Origin: a virus
Taxonomy: Duplodnaviria > Caudoviricetes
DNA length: 64,000 nt
Strand: one strand, 5' to 3'
IMG/VR virus record: IMGVR_UViG_3300027708_000013
The notes below the pieces were generated by a model. That model searched no databases and was not told the origin of the DNA. It saw only the letters and a list, made by a program, of their open reading frames with translations. This document shows positions 7,347-47,071 of this stretch, one piece after another. The translations under genes and the position numbers were made by a program. The first letter of the stretch is position 1. The number at the start of each line of letters is the position of its first letter.

Positions 7347-8300
7347 TCATTCAGGTTTGATCTTTCTAGCAACAGGTTGCCACACAGAGCGTAAACGTAA
7401 CATGCTGGCTCTAACACCGGCGGGTGAGTGTTCGGCGGGTGTGATAAACATCAAGTTTTCTGCAAATTTCGCTCCGGCTTCAGTACTTCTAATTGCTGGT
7501 ACAAACTGGTCTCGATACCAGGCCTGCACATCAGCAGGTGTGCCCCGGGGTAACACAATATTCCAGCATCCATGTATCGATAATCCTGGAGCAACTGTTT
7601 GCATCAATGGTGCTGATTCTAATCCTTTTAGTGGCTGTTCATTGGCAATACCAATTAATTTTAATTTACCTGCTTGTGCATGTGGCCATCCAACTGCCAC
7701 AGGTGTAACTCCGAATTCAACATGTCCTGCTACGACGTCTAACAGGGCTTGAGCCGGTCCTTTGTACATGGGAGTCACTACTGAATCGGTGGGCATTTGC
7801 AGACTATCAACAAGATATTGTACTGCCAGTCTGTGTCCACCACCACCAATGGCAATATTAACTGGTCTCTTTTGACTCTGTATCAATTTGACCAAGTCTT
7901 GAGGGGTGTTGACAGGGCTACCGGGTGCAGCCCAAAATGCCAAGGGACTGCGGGCAATGTTGGCCACTGGTTCAAATTCCTGTGCATCATAACGAACCAT
8001 ATTGCTGTACCATACGTCCGCAGTGACCCAGTTGCTTTGACAAGCAGGCACAGCAACAGTGTATCCATCTGCAGGCACTGTGGCAAAGTGATTCATGGCA
8101 ATGTTGCCATCGGCACCGGGTCTATATTCACTAACAAATGTGGCACTGGTTCGCTTTTCCACTATACTGGCCACAAATCTAAAACTGATTTCATTGCCGG
8201 CACCGGGGCCATTGGGAAATATCACAGTGATGGGTCGTTGTGGTTCCCAGGCAAAAGCCAGCACGGGTATCAATAATAATACTGCTAATAATTTTTTCAT
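7347..8300 (-). CDS. Bug/TctC family tripartite tricarboxylate transporter substrate-binding protein
   Basis: Signal peptide, RPITVIFPNGPGAG, EYRPGADGNIA, PADGYT, YKGPAQALLDVVAGHV motifs. Confidence 0.88.
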   Translation of the reverse strand: MKKLLAVLLLIPVLAFAWEPQRPITVIFPNGPGAGNEISFRFVASIVEKRTSATFVSEYRPGADGNIAMNHFATVPADGYTVAVPACQSNWVTADVWYSNMVRYDAQEFEPVANIARSPLAFWAAPGSPVNTPQDLVKLIQSQKRPVNIAIGGGGHRLAVQYLVDSLQMPTDSVVTPMYKGPAQALLDVVAGHVEFGVTPVAVGWPHAQAGKLKLIGIANEQPLKGLESAPLMQTVAPGLSIHGCWNIVLPRGTPADVQAWYRDQFVPAIRSTEAGAKFAENLMFITPAEHSPAGVRASMLRLRSVWQPVARKIKPE

Positions 8301-8346: not shown

Positions 8347-8913
8347 ATGTTAGATCAACAACACTTAAACAATTATTTTGGAAAAATCTGGAGCCAGCGT
8401 GAACGAAGCCTGGATCAATATCAATACTCGGGCTACGGCCTAGTGGACAAGATACTGCCCGGACAACGAGTACTTGATGTGGGTTGCGGTGTGAATCCTT
8501 TTAAAAACTACATACCAAACCTAACCGGTGTTGATCCGGCATTTGATCAAGCAGACTTTTGCATGACCATAGAAGACTATGCACAAGTTCATTACATACA
8601 GAAATTTCACGTGGCATTTTGCCTGGGCAGTATAAACTTTGGAACTAGAGAAGATATAGAACATCAAATTGCCTGTGTGATCAAATTGCTACATCGCAGA
8701 GATGCCAAGATCTTTTGGCGTTGTAATCCTGCACTGGCAGATCACGGCAATACCGAGTGCGAAACAATACCCTTTTATCCCTGGAGTTTTGATGAGCAAG
8801 TACGCTTGGCTGAACTGTTTGGGTTCAACATTGTGGAAATGGACTGGGACAACGGTAATAGAATCTATGCTGAATGGAACAGCAAAAACATCAGTCAAAA
8901 TGCTGTAGTCTAG
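8347..8913 (+). CDS. Class I SAM-dependent methyltransferase
   Basis: VLDVGCG motif I; likely start ATG 8347 (the upstream extension is a shadow of the Bug gene). Confidence 0.75.
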   Translation: MLDQQHLNNYFGKIWSQRERSLDQYQYSGYGLVDKILPGQRVLDVGCGVNPFKNYIPNLTGVDPAFDQADFCMTIEDYAQVHYIQKFHVAFCLGSINFGTREDIEHQIACVIKLLHRRDAKIFWRCNPALADHGNTECETIPFYPWSFDEQVRLAELFGFNIVEMDWDNGNRIYAEWNSKNISQNAVV

Positions 8914-32135: not shown

Positions 32136-32164
32136 ATTATACTGTGATAGTGTTTTCTGGTCAA
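32136..32164 (-). promoter_or_regulatory. sigma70-type promoter
   Basis: TTGACC-17-TATAAT. Confidence 0.75.
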
Positions 32165-32412
32165 CCATTTTTCCTCAATCTATCAATAGCTCGCATCACC
32201 ACACCATCGTCGGTTTCGTAAAACAGTCTCGATTCCAAGGCCACACCCATGGCACCTGCTTCATCATCTATGATTCTTCGCACAGCGGGAAAATGGTTTA
32301 TCAAGGCCTGTCCCAATCTATAGTCGGGTGTTTGTAATTTTTGCCAAGTGTAGATTTGGAAAAACTCTTCCCATTCGGCTTCGGTGATGGTGCCGGGTAT
32401 CCAAGTGCTCAT
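32161..32412 (-). CDS. Small hypothetical protein
   Basis: 83 aa ORF at the end of the small-gene array. Confidence 0.55.
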   Translation of the reverse strand: MSTWIPGTITEAEWEEFFQIYTWQKLQTPDYRLGQALINHFPAVRRIIDDEAGAMGVALESRLFYETDDGVVMRAIDRLRKNG

Positions 32413-32672
32413 TCAGTGTCCTGGTTCAAAATATGCGAATACTTCAGTAGAAAAAATGTATGCTGTGCTTCATCGTAAAAATCCAACATGATTGGGGTTT
32501 CATAATATTGATGCAAATCTCGGTAATCTCGGTGCACACGAGTTGTAAATCCCAAATCTCTTCGCATGCAGGCACGTATCAACAACACACTGGGTGGATG
32601 GTTCTCCGCTATATTCTGCCGGATTTTTTGCCACTGGCTGTGGGTTAGTTCTATGGGTAGACTCAACTCCAC
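32409..32672 (-). CDS. Small paralogue, FxL(K/R)(W/Y) family
   Basis: ...DFYDEAQHTFFLLKYS. Confidence 0.65.
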   Translation of the reverse strand: MELSLPIELTHSQWQKIRQNIAENHPPSVLLIRACMRRDLGFTTRVHRDYRDLHQYYETPIMLDFYDEAQHTFFLLKYSHILNQDTE

Positions 32673-32899
32673 CTCAGGGCAAATAATGTGGCTCGTTTTG
32701 AACAGTCAAATTCCCACCGGGTGGAATATGTGATGTTACGCCAATGTGAACGATTGCCAAACTGTTTCCGACACCAATCAACAATTTCCTGGTGTTCGGC
32801 AACTCTCTCGTTCCAAGTTTGACCCCGCCATGTATGTTCAACAACATAACGCACCTGTCTTCGATTCCGTCTGCGTTGATGACTGTTCATGATGACCAC
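32663..32899 (-). CDS. Small paralogue, FxLRW family
   Basis: IVDWCRKQFG...FDCSKRATLFALRWS*. Confidence 0.7.
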   Translation of the reverse strand: MVIMNSHQRRRNRRQVRYVVEHTWRGQTWNERVAEHQEIVDWCRKQFGNRSHWRNITYSTRWEFDCSKRATLFALRWS

Positions 32900-33183
32900 C
32901 TCAATACGAACATGGTGTACAACTGTTCGTCTAGGATATAAACATGGTTATCAACGAAGTATCCTACTTGACGCCACGACCCCGGTGGGTGTTGTTCAAT
33001 CCACCGGGTAATTTCTTCATCTCGGTATCTCACTCTAACCGCACGGGATTCACCCCGATATGGTCCCAATACAAATCTAGGCCCTGTTTTCTCTAAGACT
33101 TTCTCTAAAACTTCCCGATCAATGTCATTTTTCATTTGTTTTGCCATTGCATTGATTATCGCATCTTCTGTAATCATAGCCAC
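32887..33183 (-). CDS. Small paralogue, FxLRW family
   Basis: ITRWIEQ...DEQLYTMFVLRWSS*. Confidence 0.7.
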   Translation of the reverse strand: MAMITEDAIINAMAKQMKNDIDREVLEKVLEKTGPRFVLGPYRGESRAVRVRYRDEEITRWIEQHPPGSWRQVGYFVDNHVYILDEQLYTMFVLRWSS

Positions 33184-33398
33184 CTCAATCTAAATAGTGT
33201 TGCATCTTCGGCTCGAGCAAAACAGTAAAAAATAGCATAGGGATCATCCTCCAGCCATTCTCGTTTCCAACAACCTTTTGGATTATCCATAGGATCCCAC
33301 GGTTCTCCAAAAATTTCTCTGCACCAGTGCCTTGCCTGTACCCACAGACTGTGCCGGTTGGTTTCTAGTCTTATAGCATGTTGCATCGTCATAGCCAC
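33174..33398 (-). CDS. Small paralogue, FxLRW family
   Basis: ARHWCREIFG...FARAEDATLFRLRWL*. Confidence 0.7.
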   Translation of the reverse strand: MAMTMQHAIRLETNRHSLWVQARHWCREIFGEPWDPMDNPKGCWKREWLEDDPYAIFYCFARAEDATLFRLRWL

Positions 33399-34239
33399 CT
33401 CAATCTAAACATGGTGGCATCTGTGTCTGACAACACTGTAACATACCATTCCGATAGTGGATTTTTTCATATTTTTATATTAATGTAATTATTATTAGTA
33501 TAGTTTAGTATCATTTCTTGCTTGCTCAACAACCAGTCTTTCATTTCCAATGAATCAAATTTTTCGTATACGAGAAACGGTGCGGGGTTTTCTTTTGTGA
33601 TTTCTAAAAAAGCCAGTTGCCAAATTCTAAAAAACTTTTGATTAACATTGATACTAAAATTAAATTTCAAGCAAGTACGTTTATAAGTTGCCAAGAGTTC
33701 TAAAAATCTTTCAAAAGTTATATAATTTTGTTTTTGATTATGCTCTAAGAAGTTACAAATAACTTGCCATGCTGTTTCAGGAGAATAAAATAAATCTTTC
33801 CAGTCAATTTGAAATTTGCCCGGACAATGATATCCCTGTATAAACCTAGACTGTATAAGCAACCACTGGAAGTCGTCCCAAGGATCCGTATACTTTTCGT
33901 ACGGGCATACTACTAATCTTTTTCCGTTGACTCTTTGATAACTCAACTCAAACAAAACTCTTTTATGTACATAAAGTTTCCAAAAATTATATTTGTAGTT
34001 GCCATTGCCGATCGATAATACAGAATCATCGGTATCAACATGATGAAAGGTTTCTATTAATGGCCTGTGCTGAGAGTAGGGGCGGTGAAAATTGGTGTTG
34101 TATTCTTTCCAGGTGGCATTTGGGACAATACAATATTCTAATAAATGACCTAACCATTCTCCGCCTGCTCCATGAGCATATGATACCTTGATCACAGCCA
34201 CCTCAATCTAAACATGGTTAACATGGTGGCATCTGTGTC
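33178..34239. repeat. Three copies of a direct repeat encoding ...FRLRWL*
   Basis: agccacctcaatctaaa at 33178, 33393 and 34196; the latter two extend to catggtggcatctgtgtc (34196 copy has a 9 nt insertion). Confidence 0.9.
33467..34201 (-). CDS. AT-rich hypothetical protein inserted in the paralogue array (sulfotransferase-like N-terminus)
   Basis: VSYAHGAGGEWLGHLL; flanked by the direct repeats. Confidence 0.6.
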   Translation of the reverse strand: MAVIKVSYAHGAGGEWLGHLLEYCIVPNATWKEYNTNFHRPYSQHRPLIETFHHVDTDDSVLSIGNGNYKYNFWKLYVHKRVLFELSYQRVNGKRLVVCPYEKYTDPWDDFQWLLIQSRFIQGYHCPGKFQIDWKDLFYSPETAWQVICNFLEHNQKQNYITFERFLELLATYKRTCLKFNFSINVNQKFFRIWQLAFLEITKENPAPFLVYEKFDSLEMKDWLLSKQEMILNYTNNNYINIKI

Positions 34240-34449
34240 CGATTCAAAATAAAACACCGCCACTCTATCGTAATTGTTTTCGACGAACATCCGTGGTTCC
34301 ATGATTTCGGCCCAGACCAAGCCCGAGCCCGAATCCCAACACCAAGTTTTCATTTCCCGCATGCTGGCCTTGGAATTTGTCAGAGTGACACAATGACAAC
34401 GATCCAGTACTGAATCCTTGGGGCGGAAATTATATGTGTTGTTGTGCAT
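34192..34449 (-). CDS. Small paralogue, FxLRW family
   Basis: MKTWCWD...FESDTDATMLTMFRLRWL*. Confidence 0.7.
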   Translation of the reverse strand: MHNNTYNFRPKDSVLDRCHCVTLTNSKASMREMKTWCWDSGSGLVWAEIMEPRMFVENNYDRVAVFYFESDTDATMLTMFRLRWL

Positions 34450-34693
34450 GTGTGCTGTATTTTAACCTATAGTAAGTCAGTGCTTCGCCTTCAAGTTCAG
34501 CGTAGATGCGTATGACAAACCCCATGGTCATGGCACTTGCATCGCAGTAAAATGTCAACTGTTCTGTACTGTGTGTTTTAACATAGTGGGCTTCCTCTGT
34601 GCGTTCCCATTCGGATATGGGACCTGCTGCATACAGGTAAGGATCTTCACAGTCACCCATGGCGATTTCTTTAACCAAGATGCCCCTACTCAT
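34430..34693 (-). CDS. Small paralogue, (F/Y)xLKY family
   Basis: ISEWERT...LEGEALTYYRLKYS. Confidence 0.6.
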   Translation of the reverse strand: MSRGILVKEIAMGDCEDPYLYAAGPISEWERTEEAHYVKTHSTEQLTFYCDASAMTMGFVIRIYAELEGEALTYYRLKYSTHAQQHI

Positions 34694-34944
34694 CGATTGA
34701 TCAATCCACCAGCAAACGCCACAGTGACTTCCTCGTCTGTTAATCTACGCCCGGCAGTTTTGAGTTGAAACATGAGTGCATCCTGCTCGTCAGGAAAGTG
34801 GAAATTCATATAATTCTCTGTGGGAGTGTAGGCCCATTTATCACCGTTCAAGCCATAAGTTTCCAATGTCCAAGTCAACAACTCGTTCCAAGCTTCGCCG
34901 TGACCATAAGTATTATGCCAAGGCACTTGTATGGTTATAGCCAT
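34690..34944 (-). CDS. Small paralogue, FxLK family
   Basis: LLTWTLETYG...FPDEQDALMFQLK. Confidence 0.65.
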   Translation of the reverse strand: MAITIQVPWHNTYGHGEAWNELLTWTLETYGLNGDKWAYTPTENYMNFHFPDEQDALMFQLKTAGRRLTDEEVTVAFAGGLINR

Positions 34945-35108
34945 CTCAGTCCAAACATTATGGCTGCTGATTCAGTGGGCAAGGAAAAAGTGTATCGAGT
35001 ATTGGGCCATTGATTTTGCCATGCCCAATTGCTGTGATAATGAGTGTTGCACCATTCAATAATGGCATATATGTTTCTGTTTCGACAATCCAAGGTTATA
35101 TCGGTCAT
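34935..35108 (-). CDS. Small paralogue, FxLRW family (57 aa, below the ORF-track cutoff)
   Basis: Manual translation MTDITLDCRNRNIYAIIEWCNTHY...LPTESAAIMFGLRWL*. Confidence 0.7.
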   Translation of the reverse strand: MTDITLDCRNRNIYAIIEWCNTHYHSNWAWQNQWPNTRYTFSLPTESAAIMFGLRWL

Positions 35109-35503: not shown

Positions 35504-35547
35504 AGCACAAGTATACACAACTGCTGTACACTATGTCAATACTGATG

Positions 35548-35916
35548 TTACCAAGTGTAGAATCTCGGTGTGACCAGTAGCCAACCTATGTTGTCAAAAT
35601 CCGCAATGATTTCAGCTGTGACAAAACTTTCTTCTACAAATCCACAAAAATCCGTACCTTTGAATCCTGTGCCCGAACAGTACCAATTTATGTAACTGTT
35701 GTCATCGCGAATATCCGCCACCAGGTCCGCAGCATAACGCCAATTGCAATTCCAGGTGAGATTTTTAAGAATAGCCCACATGTCCTTGGGGGCAAAGTTG
35801 TTGTTACAAAGTGCAGCATACAAATTTTGAGCATAGATTTCTTGATCGCGTACCTTGTGTAACAACCACTCGGTACTGCGTATATCGCGTTCTAAGTTAA
35901 ACACTTGTCGAGGCAT
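35548..35916 (-). CDS. Hypothetical protein
   Basis: YAQNLYAALCNN...YINWYCSG; ATG 4 nt after TAAATA. Confidence 0.65.
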   Translation of the reverse strand: MPRQVFNLERDIRSTEWLLHKVRDQEIYAQNLYAALCNNNFAPKDMWAILKNLTWNCNWRYAADLVADIRDDNSYINWYCSGTGFKGTDFCGFVEESFVTAEIIADFDNIGWLLVTPRFYTW

Positions 35917-35987: not shown

Positions 35988-36413
35988 ATGACAAGTTTAA
36001 CTATAGCAATCACAAGAACTGCTAAACAAGCAGGAACATCAACACCTGATCAATTGATGCAGAACCCAACAGCAGAAATGTTAGCAACACTTCCCACATA
36101 CGGACATGATATCAACGCTGTATTAAGTCAATCTCAAATGGTACTTGCAAGACATGAATTTCTTGTTTCTAGTGTTTTTAAAATACCAGAAAATGGTACT
36201 ACTGAAACCACTGTAGATGGTGTCAAAGTTGTAACAACAACGTTTACAGTAGAAGACGTCAGCACTGTTCCTGGCTTGACTGCGGATAATGCTTATGACA
36301 TGTGTATCAGTACCCGACAAGCAGAAGCTGAATCACTTGGCCTTGGAGATTACTATGATTGGAGACAGAAATATTTTGATGATCATTTTATTACAACTCA
36401 CTCAACAACATAA
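35988..36413 (+). CDS. Hypothetical late protein, paralogue 1
   Basis: TAAATA at about 35954 and GGAG RBS; shares VPGLT.DNAYDMCISTRQ with the next gene. Confidence 0.7.
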   Translation: MTSLTIAITRTAKQAGTSTPDQLMQNPTAEMLATLPTYGHDINAVLSQSQMVLARHEFLVSSVFKIPENGTTETTVDGVKVVTTTFTVEDVSTVPGLTADNAYDMCISTRQAEAESLGLGDYYDWRQKYFDDHFITTHSTT

Positions 36414-36424
36414 AGGAGCTCTAA

Positions 36425-36847
36425 ATGACATCAATGAACATATTAGTTACAAGAACTGCTAAAGAAGTAGACCAGATTAACCCAAATCTTAGTTTGGATA
36501 ATGTCAATTTATCATCAATACCTTCATATGGATATGATCTTGCCAAAGTGATAGATCAACAAAAAATGTGGTCAGTGAGAGATCAGCTAAATTCTGCCAG
36601 TGTTTTTAAAGTGGCTGACTATGGTACTGATACCATTAATAATGAAGGAAAACATGTATTTACATTGACTTACGCCGTAAACGATATCTCAGCTGTGCCG
36701 GGTCTAACTGTGGATAACGCTTATGACATGTGTATCAGTACCAGACAAACCCAGGCCGAGGCATTAGGTGTAGGTGATTTCCAGGGATGGAGGCAAAAGT
36801 ATTTTGATGATCAGTTTACCACCACAGTGGTAGTAACTACCAATTGA
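36425..36847 (+). CDS. Hypothetical late protein, paralogue 2
   Basis: AAGGAG RBS; aligned motifs TRTAK, SVFK, DNAYDMCISTRQ, WRQKYFDD. Confidence 0.7.
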   Translation: MTSMNILVTRTAKEVDQINPNLSLDNVNLSSIPSYGYDLAKVIDQQKMWSVRDQLNSASVFKVADYGTDTINNEGKHVFTLTYAVNDISAVPGLTVDNAYDMCISTRQTQAEALGVGDFQGWRQKYFDDQFTTTVVVTTN

Positions 36848-45411: not shown

Positions 45412-46578
45412 TTAACGATTAAAAAGATTGTAATTACCGGTATCGTATTTTTTATTACATCTGTAAAAACTAAGCATGTGAGTGGAGTAGGTTATTGCAT
45501 CTCGAACTCGAAGCCATTGCGGCGTAGTATCGTCTACAAATTGATTCAACCCTATTTCTAAAGTAAAACGTATTAGATCCAATAGTACTTTTTTACTCAA
45601 CGCATAACCACTATCTTGTATTTGATACACACTGGTGGTTGGCATGACTGGATTAATATCATTGTGTTCTTTGACATTGTCGGAGGAAAGTTGATCTAAC
45701 CCTGATTCCCACATTATTTTTAAGGCAGATATTTCTAATAATATAGACTTTAATTTATACACCAACACAGGATCTTGAACCTCGGGACATTTTGATAATT
45801 CGTCATAGAGACCAATGATGACGCCCAAATGCACAGTGACCCAACATTGTCTTACAAAGTTTCCCCACGGATATGTGGGATCCGAGCGTGGATTTGTTTT
45901 TAATATATAGCAATCATCTGTACCCACTGGCAGTGGTTCATGTAGGGTTAAAATTCCTGGCGCTGCTCCTTTCATTCCCACAGCAGTTGGACTTTCTGTT
46001 CCATCGGTTCTCGAATGTTTGATTTTATTTAAATTTAAATAAACAACATATATTGAAACTTCTGCATTGTGTTGACTGTGTTTATGTGCATAACTGACTT
46101 GCGGAGCACCTGTTTTTGGTACTTCTATCACACAAATGTCAGCGGATTTTAAATTACTTACCCAACATTTTGTTCCAGGAAGTAACATGTTTGTGTCTGT
46201 ATCGTAACGTATAGTATCTGCGGCACGACTACTTGAATAGCAACAAATCGTTTCATGATATGCACAAGATTTCAACAGACGATCGCCGGCTCGGTCGGGT
46301 ACAAGGCTGACAGCTAATCTGGATTTATGATTGTGTTGAACACAGTGTGCCATGGATAAATCGCGTTGGGCAACATACATTAAATTGTAGTAGAAAATTT
46401 TCTTTTCCGCATTAGTTGCTGTTGCAAAATCAAAATCAAAAAACGGAGCTAAAATCTTAAGATTTTTTTGAAAGTCGCTGTTGTCTTGTAAAGATTCTAT
46501 GGGAAGGTTTAATTTTTCTAGAAGTTTGATATTTTTGAGCATGACAAGAAAGAGTATGTAAATGTATTTAGTTTGCAC
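45412..46578 (-). CDS. Acyl-CoA dehydrogenase-like protein
   Basis: GTKCWVSN, AVGMKG motifs resembling ACAD; start uncertain. Confidence 0.5.
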   Translation of the reverse strand: MQTKYIYILFLVMLKNIKLLEKLNLPIESLQDNSDFQKNLKILAPFFDFDFATATNAEKKIFYYNLMYVAQRDLSMAHCVQHNHKSRLAVSLVPDRAGDRLLKSCAYHETICCYSSSRAADTIRYDTDTNMLLPGTKCWVSNLKSADICVIEVPKTGAPQVSYAHKHSQHNAEVSIYVVYLNLNKIKHSRTDGTESPTAVGMKGAAPGILTLHEPLPVGTDDCYILKTNPRSDPTYPWGNFVRQCWVTVHLGVIIGLYDELSKCPEVQDPVLVYKLKSILLEISALKIMWESGLDQLSSDNVKEHNDINPVMPTTSVYQIQDSGYALSKKVLLDLIRFTLEIGLNQFVDDTTPQWLRVRDAITYSTHMLSFYRCNKKYDTGNYNLFNR

Positions 46579-46590
46579 TGTGAGGGTAAC

Positions 46591-46618
46591 AAAAAACCCG
46601 CCGAAGCGGGTTCTGCTA
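46591..46618 (-). terminator. Intrinsic terminator after tmRNA
   Basis: AACCCGC-TTCG-GCGGGTTTTTT. Confidence 0.85.
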
Positions 46619-46921
46619 TTTTTGGTAATAAGGTATAACTACCCCAGAGATCATGCCGCTAGGGCGTAAACCTCATCATTAGATGCGTTTGCATTTATCG
46701 ATTTGCTTGATTTACAGTCATCGCCTACTGTGTTGCCGTCTCCATTACCTACCCCTGTCGAAACCATGGCTGGCCCATCAGAAGAAAACTCAGATCCTTT
46801 CACGGTTGGCTCCATTACTGGTTGGCCGCAGTATGCATCCTGCTGAATTTTCTTTTGGTGGACCAGGCGGGAGTCGAACCCGCGTCCAGAAGTCCTTCAC
46901 TTTGAAGGAATTACAACAATT
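46591..46921 (-). ncRNA. ssrA: Circularly permuted (two-piece) tmRNA
   Basis: T-arm and acceptor 3' end GGGTTCGACTCCC...CTGGTCCACCA (ending 46856) precede the 5' end GGGCCAG (46776). The acceptor stem has a G3-U70 pair. Tag ORF 46691-46650 encodes ANASNDEVYALAA*. Confidence 0.92.
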
Positions 46922-46924
46922 CTT

Positions 46925-47071
46925 TTAATTATAACCACGTATGACATTGTTGTCAATGGGTGGATTTGATCTTGCCAATTCTCGTTTAACAGCTTCTTGA
47001 TGTTGCTGTTCTTTTTTCTGCTTGTTCTGTTCAAACTTCTGAAGTATCACAACTTCTTCTTTGTGTGGCAT
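46925..47071 (-). CDS. Small charged helical protein (48 aa)
   Basis: Manual translation MPHKEEVVILQKFEQNKQKKEQ...GYN*, downstream of TAAATA. Confidence 0.5.
   Translation of the reverse strand: MPHKEEVVILQKFEQNKQKKEQQHQEAVKRELARSNPPIDNNVIRGYN
46928..46956 (-). promoter_or_regulatory. Perfect consensus sigma70 promoter for tmRNA
   Basis: TTGACA-17-TATAAT. Confidence 0.88.

Follow-up and report, generated by a model that had tools for sequence, protein, structure and literature searches.

A putative translationally coupled, tail-recombining array of small-gene cassettes in a large freshwater phage

This locus raises the question of why a series of small, overlapping phage genes should end in the same short motif, F-x-L-R-W, and in nearly the same DNA. 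The window analyzed here is a whole 64,000-nucleotide stretch of a tailed virus (Caudoviricetes; IMG/VR record IMGVR_UViG_3300027708_000013), and the locus is a minus-strand series of ten open reading frames (ORFs) running from position 35108 down to 32161, which overlap by 1 to 20 nucleotides (nt) and leave no intergenic DNA (Table 1). A first-pass annotation had described eight of the ORFs as paralogues whose conserved tail acts at once as protein motif, translational-coupling joint, and recombination handle. Its ORFs, coordinates, and tails match those found here; it had overlooked a stranded ninth tail, the repeats around a gene of 244 amino acids (aa), and a probable further cassette at the end of the series. 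This part of a large freshwater phage is probably a variable region of early genes, in which translationally coupled cassettes form an array that recombines through their tails.

Most of the cassettes encode small proteins of one very large family that has no name and is confined to phages. Profile A2, covering the 57 positions of the C-terminal domain, was searched against 1.84 billion sequences and retrieved 3,173 cluster representatives (clusters at 50% identity) at E values of 1e-3 or less; in almost all of them, the domain ended at the last or second-to-last residue. All source names of the family matches were "hypothetical protein." A broader profile (A3), built mostly from outside sequences, recovered six ORFs of the array, which are numbered members 1 to 6 from the 35108 end. 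Members 2 and 5 were recovered with E values of 6e-10 and 9e-5, respectively, though both lie outside the profile. With leave-one-out profiles made within the window, six of the eight ORFs ranked first among 897, member 2 was borderline, and the 87-aa cassette failed. At the DNA level, the 17-mer TTTAGATTGAGGTGGCT of the tails is present in three exact copies, and shuffled sequences are expected to give 0.23 copies with up to three mismatches allowed. An exact search for the 17-mer found four viral contigs, namely, one 518-kb phage and three contigs of one other phage, which are identical where they overlap and carry some twenty such genes in a row. A degenerate DNA pattern of the tail gave hits in over 120 viral contigs, which range from 4 to 480 kb, and the profile search of these pattern-found loci gave 618 members in 123 loci, with up to 16 members per locus. 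Three or more members were present in 98 of the 123 loci, the next gene was another member in 169 of 360 cases, and the loci were spread over unrelated phage types.

No significant Pfam, PHROG, or NCBIfam match was obtained for the window members, in agreement with the earlier remark that no family name could be recognized. Likewise, 47 diverse members compared with Pfam, PHROGs, and NCBIfam gave nothing relevant, with only two unrelated single-member matches, and a tblastn search of two members against 50,697 deposited phage records gave no match. A literature search found no description of the tail family or of its joint, only the two analogies with known shuffling systems that are discussed below. 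The tail family is a new protein family, and its joint is a new form of cassette shuffling.

The claim of eight paralogues was borne out for the six members, each of which matches the family profile significantly along the entire domain. It failed for the 87-aa cassette, which belongs to a conserved family of its own (63 clusters at an identity of at least 56%) and showed no significant profile-profile match to the tail family, with 14 tail columns aligned at an E value of 6e-4; its model nevertheless has the same beta-alpha-beta-beta-alpha order as the tail family. The 85- to 87-aa cassette matched the family over the last 21 columns only (hhalign E value of 2e-5 with a 12-sequence profile; P of 0.0017 for the single sequence). 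Homologues of the two cassettes were present in 13 and 12 of the 123 array-bearing loci, respectively, so that each side family occurs in about 10% of them. The last cassette, of 83 aa, showed no significant similarity to the tail family in profile-profile comparison.

Next, selection on the array genes was examined. Against the syntenic relative L005 (about 70 to 77% nucleotide identity), the ratios of nonsynonymous to synonymous substitution rates (dN/dS) of the five shared cassettes were 0.07 to 0.33, and the flanking genes gave similar values. These ratios indicate that the shared ORFs are real genes, including the 57-aa ORF (member 1) that was absent from the ORF track and had been proposed as a gene from the letters; its orthologues are 72% and 91% identical to it, and its dN/dS is 0.23. 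The dN/dS of member 2 was 0.09. Public gene calls on contig L007, whose DNA is identical to the window, skip positions 7759 to 7947 and 8461 to 8690, which correspond to members 1 and 3. Because two conserved array genes are omitted there, the small overlapping cassettes of this family are under-annotated.

The role of the tail as a protein motif was then considered. The AlphaFold2 model of the 57-aa member showed a beta-alpha-beta-beta-alpha fold with a predicted local distance difference test (pLDDT) score of 90 and a predicted template modeling score of 0.71. The domain spans about 55 to 57 residues, and F-x-L-R-W forms the end of its last helix, followed by one residue. The F, L, and W residues were near-invariant in the 618 members, which upholds the reading of the tail as a protein motif. 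The conserved positions are mostly core residues, whereas length differences occur at the N terminus and in the loop that follows the first helix. Five window members end within 0 to 2 residues of the domain, and the exception is member 2, which has an extension past it. In structure libraries, only uncharacterized phage proteins matched at meaningful scores. Among solved structures, the neighbors were ferredoxin-like, ACT, RRM, KH, and secretin-N domains, with a best VIA-align Z score of 6.9 and Foldseek E values above 0.2. Ferredoxin-like sandwiches such as ACT, RRM, and secretin-N share the beta-alpha-beta-beta-alpha order and two-layer packing with the array domain, but the latter lacks the fourth strand. 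These neighbors are uninformative on function because the Z scores are at most 6.9, the fourth strand is missing, and there is no sequence similarity.

The same tail is under a second constraint at the DNA level, with its codons held as TTG AGG TGG NNA TGA. Five junctions in the array have the form (T/C)TG AGG TGG with one or two further codons before TGA, and an ATG, GTG, or TTG of the next gene overlaps the stop codon. For codon counts, the members matching the DNA search pattern were excluded, which reduced the 618 members to 425. Exactly one residue followed the tryptophan in 83% of the 425 members. The tail arginine was encoded by AGG in 65% of them, compared with 7% in the bodies of the same domains, and the tail leucine was encoded by TTG in 58%, compared with 23% in the bodies. 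When the members were grouped into 319 clusters at about 60% identity, the values were 72% versus 7% for AGG (odds ratio of 34, P of about 1e-97) and 59% versus 23% for TTG (P of about 4e-26). The last sense codon ended in A in 83% of the members with a TGA stop, thereby creating ATGA, and many TAA stops form TAATG. Overall, ATGA overlaps made up 55% of the junctions, and an ATG beginning two bases into the stop (TAATG or TGATG) made up 14%.

The codon preference followed the presence of a downstream start. With no start nearby, AGG dropped to 4 of 15 members (P of 0.02 on cluster representatives), and the off-junction tails in the window and a relative read L-K-Y or L-K-T or used a CGT codon. 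At the junction of member 1 (34935-34944), the A of AGA and the TG of TGG supply the start codon of the following gene, so that the two genes share 10 nt; at this junction, the only one of its kind, AGA and CGA alternate between the window and the relative, and the third-position A is kept. The synonymous codons are thus strongly skewed in the manner foreseen for a translational-coupling joint, and the skew is weaker without a close downstream start. GAGGTGG, a putative ribosome-binding site, sits five bases ahead of the ATG, a Shine-Dalgarno spacing that suits initiation; the phage's own genes mostly carry AAGGAG-type ribosome-binding sites. Given this position of GAGGTGG and the overlap of the ATG with the stop, a ribosome ending one cassette would be positioned to start the next.

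The third role proposed for the tail, that of a recombination handle, was investigated by comparing the locus across phages. Five relatives (L134, L136, L005, L138, and L139) retain the flanking genes on either side together with the first four cassettes; downstream of the fourth cassette they differ, with five to ten small genes in total drawn from a common pool. The array content is therefore variable rather than fixed, as the first-pass annotation had expected. In an unrelated phage, L077, comparison with its near-identical twin L080 revealed 3+2 extra cassettes with joints inside the tail. When all pairs of loci at 90% identity or more were analyzed, 31 internal homology endpoints were obtained; a family stop codon was no more than 3 nt away from eight of them (0.13 expected) and no more than 30 nt away from 15 (1.1 expected).

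A further case is provided by the 244-aa gene of the window, which is AT-rich and flanked by two copies of the approximately 40-nt tail, with a stranded tail of 25 codons in frame behind it. This gene is not present in any of the five relatives. In L134, the closest relative, the orthologue of member 3 joins that of member 4 directly, forming an empty site, and a three-way alignment places the shared tail at this joint. In an independent DNA run (X5), a contig joins position 33407 to 34220, and 20 nt fit both sides. These comparisons show that tail recombination placed a foreign AT-rich gene between tail copies and left a tail stranded. The same run also holds a joint that goes back 1,018 nt at the 17-mer, which fits a circle or a tandem duplication too. 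No relatives of the 244-aa gene were found in viral contigs, and its own Pfam hits were insignificant. The nearest language-model clusters of its protein were viral hypothetical proteins, and sulfotransferase-domain clusters appeared further down (scores of 0.93 to 0.95), a lead that the protein is possibly sulfotransferase-like.

Altogether, the empty site in L134, the mosaics in the five relatives, and the exact gains and losses elsewhere argue for a recombination handle, and comparison shows that whole cassettes are inserted, deleted, and replaced at the tails. Because every cassette ends in the same 20 to 40 nt, whole cassettes are exchanged by homologous recombination between tails, and the products should remain in frame and expressed.

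Several points weigh against this picture of a coupled, tail-recombining family. Some of the 31 breakpoints come from overlapping phage groups or common ancestry, which leaves about six independent events, and with so short a tail, some breakpoints could reflect microhomology and not a favored site. Codons were counted in loci that a single tail pattern had retrieved, so these loci come from lineages carrying that pattern, and paralogues within one array are not fully independent. For two of the eight ORFs and for the last cassette, family membership could not be demonstrated; the fold is a ferredoxin-like sandwich of generic type, with a Z score (6.9) below the tool's own noise level, and among the array neighbors in 60 loci, no constant partner was found, only varied genes of DNA and RNA metabolism and auxiliary genes. 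The commonest neighbor was an Rv2179c-like exonuclease, in 6 of the 60 loci.

The cassettes might instead be ordinary old tandem duplicates, with the tail kept as helix end and ribosome-binding site and the breakpoints arising as by-products of microhomology; the tail would then have no real role in creating diversity. The constraints on the protein and on the ribosome-binding site could by themselves explain much of the nucleotide identity, and the stability of the first four cassettes in all relatives would be expected of old duplicates, but this history does not account for whole cassettes gained or lost, with joints inside the tail, between phages that are 95 to 99% identical. Moreover, the repeat around the 244-aa gene extends past the ribosome-binding site by about 20 nt on its upstream side, where the codons are free of that constraint, and an empty site exists; we consider this explanation improbable. 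A different possibility accepts recombination and regards the cassettes as essentially selfish, spread between phages by the tail while the proteins bring little or no benefit. Purifying selection on the orthologues, comparable to that on the flanking genes, and the retention of four cassettes in every relative make this the least probable of the alternatives, although the spread over unrelated phage types and the very high turnover would agree with it. Recombination of cassettes through their tails is the preferred reading.

The nearest described mechanism is that of the promoter-early stem-loops (PeSLs) of T4-type phages, which mediate modular shuffling (Arbiol et al. 2010, PMC2839356; Comeau et al. 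2014, PMC4122927). In both systems, short repeated expression signals lie between small nonessential genes in hyperplastic regions, and recombination adds, removes, or swaps genes among close relatives; PeSL mini-circles have been detected, and the joint of run X5 at the 17-mer would also fit a circle. However, PeSLs are intergenic and consist of a sigma-70 promoter and a terminator, whereas the repeated element here is a coding tail with ribosome-binding site, stop, and start. No PeSL-type intergenic promoter with stem-loop terminator was found in the array, where all ten junctions overlap. A second analogy is found in the orphan cassettes of polymorphic toxin, Rhs, and contact-dependent inhibition systems, where the coding DNA of a conserved motif supplies the recombination homology (Zhang et al. 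2012, PMC3482391). There, too, the DNA encoding a conserved motif drives the exchange of variable modules from arrays of stand-alone cassettes, but the conserved part lies upstream of a C-terminal toxin and is accompanied by an immunity gene and a large delivery protein, whereas in the array it is the C terminus of whole small genes. No toxin or immunity family was found among the array members in Pfam, PHROGs, or NCBIfam.

Integrons resemble the array in their codirectional promoterless cassettes, single upstream promoter, and gain or loss of single cassettes. They differ in using attC sites and an integrase, whereas the array has overlaps of 1 to 20 nt and homologous-looking joints at repeats of 20 to 40 nt. 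No attC-like element was present at the array junctions, where nothing recurs except the direct-repeat tail, and no integrase domain was found in the large window ORFs that were scanned, with no search aimed at integrases. In classical translational coupling, known from operons and from T4, an ATGA overlap is combined with a ribosome-binding site inside the final codons of the preceding gene. The array has the same arrangement, but its signal is fixed in a protein motif that the whole family shares, in thousands of divergent genes, and the codon bias can be measured family-wide. A single sequence that serves three constraints (fold, translation initiation, and recombination) can calibrate tests of selection at synonymous sites, and such a natural "plug-and-play" coupling joint is a candidate for synthetic operons. 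In addition, the tail provides a simple rule by which the limits of cassettes and islands of accessory genes can be located in the genomes of large phages, and the analysis gives a boundary and a profile for one of the larger unannotated families of environmental phages, whose members gene callers partly miss.

As for function, our tentative view is that the proteins may be fast-evolving early accessory binders that act on host or defense proteins and whose core is conserved, while their loops and N-terminal extensions vary. This view is favored because the core residues are conserved while the N terminus and the loop vary, the operon is of an early type, and there is no constant partner. The effector label of the first-pass annotation (antidefense or host takeover) draws on context, namely, the early-type promoter, the accessory and variable content, and the purifying selection. 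As an alternative to protein binders, the members could be regulators of phage or host expression that bind nucleic acids or small ligands in the manner of RRM, ACT, or KH domains. Such domains, together with the secretin-N type, are the best structural neighbors, but every match lies below the stated noise level of the tool, the fourth strand is missing, neither a ribonucleoprotein-type motif nor a ligand motif is conserved, and most conserved positions belong to the core; regulators of this kind seem quite improbable. A large pool of small early proteins that turns over quickly is a natural place to seek host-takeover and counterdefense functions. A bolder extension of the binder reading holds that an integrase-free cassette system operates across unrelated large phages, in which the protein-end joint taps a pool of thousands of small binders, and that part of this pool, as the cassettes carrying a capsid peptide suggest, may serve as decoys or sponges against capsid-sensing immunity. 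We regard this extension as rather doubtful.

Table 1. Array genes, repeats, and promoter match in the window
Feature	Position	Strand	Description
Sigma-70-like promoter match	35510-35539	-	TTGACA, 18 nt, TATACT; upstream of operon; consensus match only
Member 1, 57 aa	34935-35108	-	Minimal domain; tail CTG AGA TGG CTA TAA
Member 2, 84 aa	34690-34944	-	Motif F-Q-L-K-T; 22-residue extension after domain; ATGA overlap with next gene
Coresident cassette, 87 aa	34430-34693	-	Separate conserved family; tail Y-R-L-K-Y
Member 3, 85 aa	34192-34449	-	Tail TTG AGG TGG CTG TGA; GTGA overlap with 244-aa gene; dN/dS 0.19
Direct repeat, upstream copy	34192-34242		Tail of member 3 with 9-nt insertion
Inserted AT-rich gene, 244 aa	33467-34201	-	G+C content of 33.6% versus 40-47% in array
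Stranded tail, 25 codons	33389-33466	-	In frame right after stop of 244-aa gene; ends D-T-D-A-T-M-F-R-L-R-W-L, then ATGA; profile E value 1e-5
Direct repeat, downstream copy	33389-33430		Stranded tail
Member 4, 72-74 aa	33174-33398	-	Tail TTG AGG TGG CTA TGA; orthologue in L134
Member 5, 96-98 aa	32887-33183	-	Tail TTG AGG TGG TCA TCA TGA; orthologues in L005 and L136
Member 6, 75-78 aa	32663-32899	-	Tail CTG AGG TGG AGT TGA; orthologue found in none of the five relatives
Cassette, 85-87 aa	32409-32672	-	In common with family: last strand and helix only (F-F-L-L-K-Y)
Last cassette, 83 aa	32161-32412	-	Tail TTG AGG AAA AAT GGT TGA; holds GAGG and ATG of next gene

The setting of the array was also examined. 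After the promoter match upstream of the operon, the next strong one (32136-32164) is at the operon end, and no minus-strand terminator match was found between the two. Strong promoter matches (at least 10 of 12 positions) thus stand at both ends of the array, with a few weak matches (9 of 12) inside. Judged by consensus matches, the layout of promoters and terminators fits a single early operon. Two lake metatranscriptome libraries contain contigs identical to the window, which span two junctions; they were not counted as evidence of transcription, as carried-over DNA is possible, and the uncovered parts are uninformative.

Fused forms of the tail domain were considered separately. A search aimed at longer fused forms found none. 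In the representative library, proteins of 121 to 172 aa (P0009, P0012, P0109, P0116, and P0146) carry two tail domains one after the other, the arrangement expected from stop loss between neighboring cassettes. A piece of about 38 residues of a T4-type major capsid protein was recurrently fused to the tail domain (L001:2184-2564, equal to G001 265816-265929, and L131; proteins P0182, P0193, P0194, P0201, P0204, and P0207). This piece corresponds to residues 95 to 128 of the gp23 of phage RB14, where conservation is highest, and is probably the Gol region that triggers Lit. If so, the capsid-fragment cassettes probably copy the peptide that bacterial abortive-infection systems sense. The fusion is not a local duplication scar, because in the complete 518-kb phage it lies 140 kb from the real capsid gene. 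In another fused form, L003:6455-6931, the N terminus showed weak similarity to the primase/helicase P-loop of cyanopodoviruses (tblastn E value of 4e-3; Pfam DnaB_C E value of 0.04), and a YKFSRAKWY subfamily with such an N-terminal extension recurs. An initial reading of this N terminus as a terminase fragment was dropped, as tblastn and Pfam point weakly to primase/helicase.

The source of the window is an uncultured large freshwater phage, because identical DNA is present in a 75.6-kb lake-metagenome contig (L007) and a Logan assembly (L008) and the match to deposited phages is nearly empty: a blastn search of the region against them gave as its sole match a short stretch in the metallophosphoesterase of jumbo phage GAP32. 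The G+C content of the window is about 42%, nearly all genes are on the minus strand, and it also encodes a ClpB-like ATPase, an ATP-dependent DNA ligase, radical S-adenosylmethionine enzymes, a tail-fiber-like protein, and a transfer-messenger RNA (tmRNA). The tmRNA gene is predicted at positions 46560 to 46948, with the tag peptide ANASNDEVYALAA.

Two kinds of genes adjoin the array on its upstream side. Positions 35548 to 35916, just upstream of the operon, encode a 122-aa protein of no known family with the motif AQNLYAALCN...W.C.WRYA, and its homologues adjoin arrays in 10 of the 123 loci, at times as two copies. Two paralogous 140-aa genes follow on the plus strand (35988-36413 and 36425-36847), and the relatives carry either one or two copies. 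Copy-number variation of this pair is also suggested by DNA run X5, which holds a joint there that goes back 407 nt.

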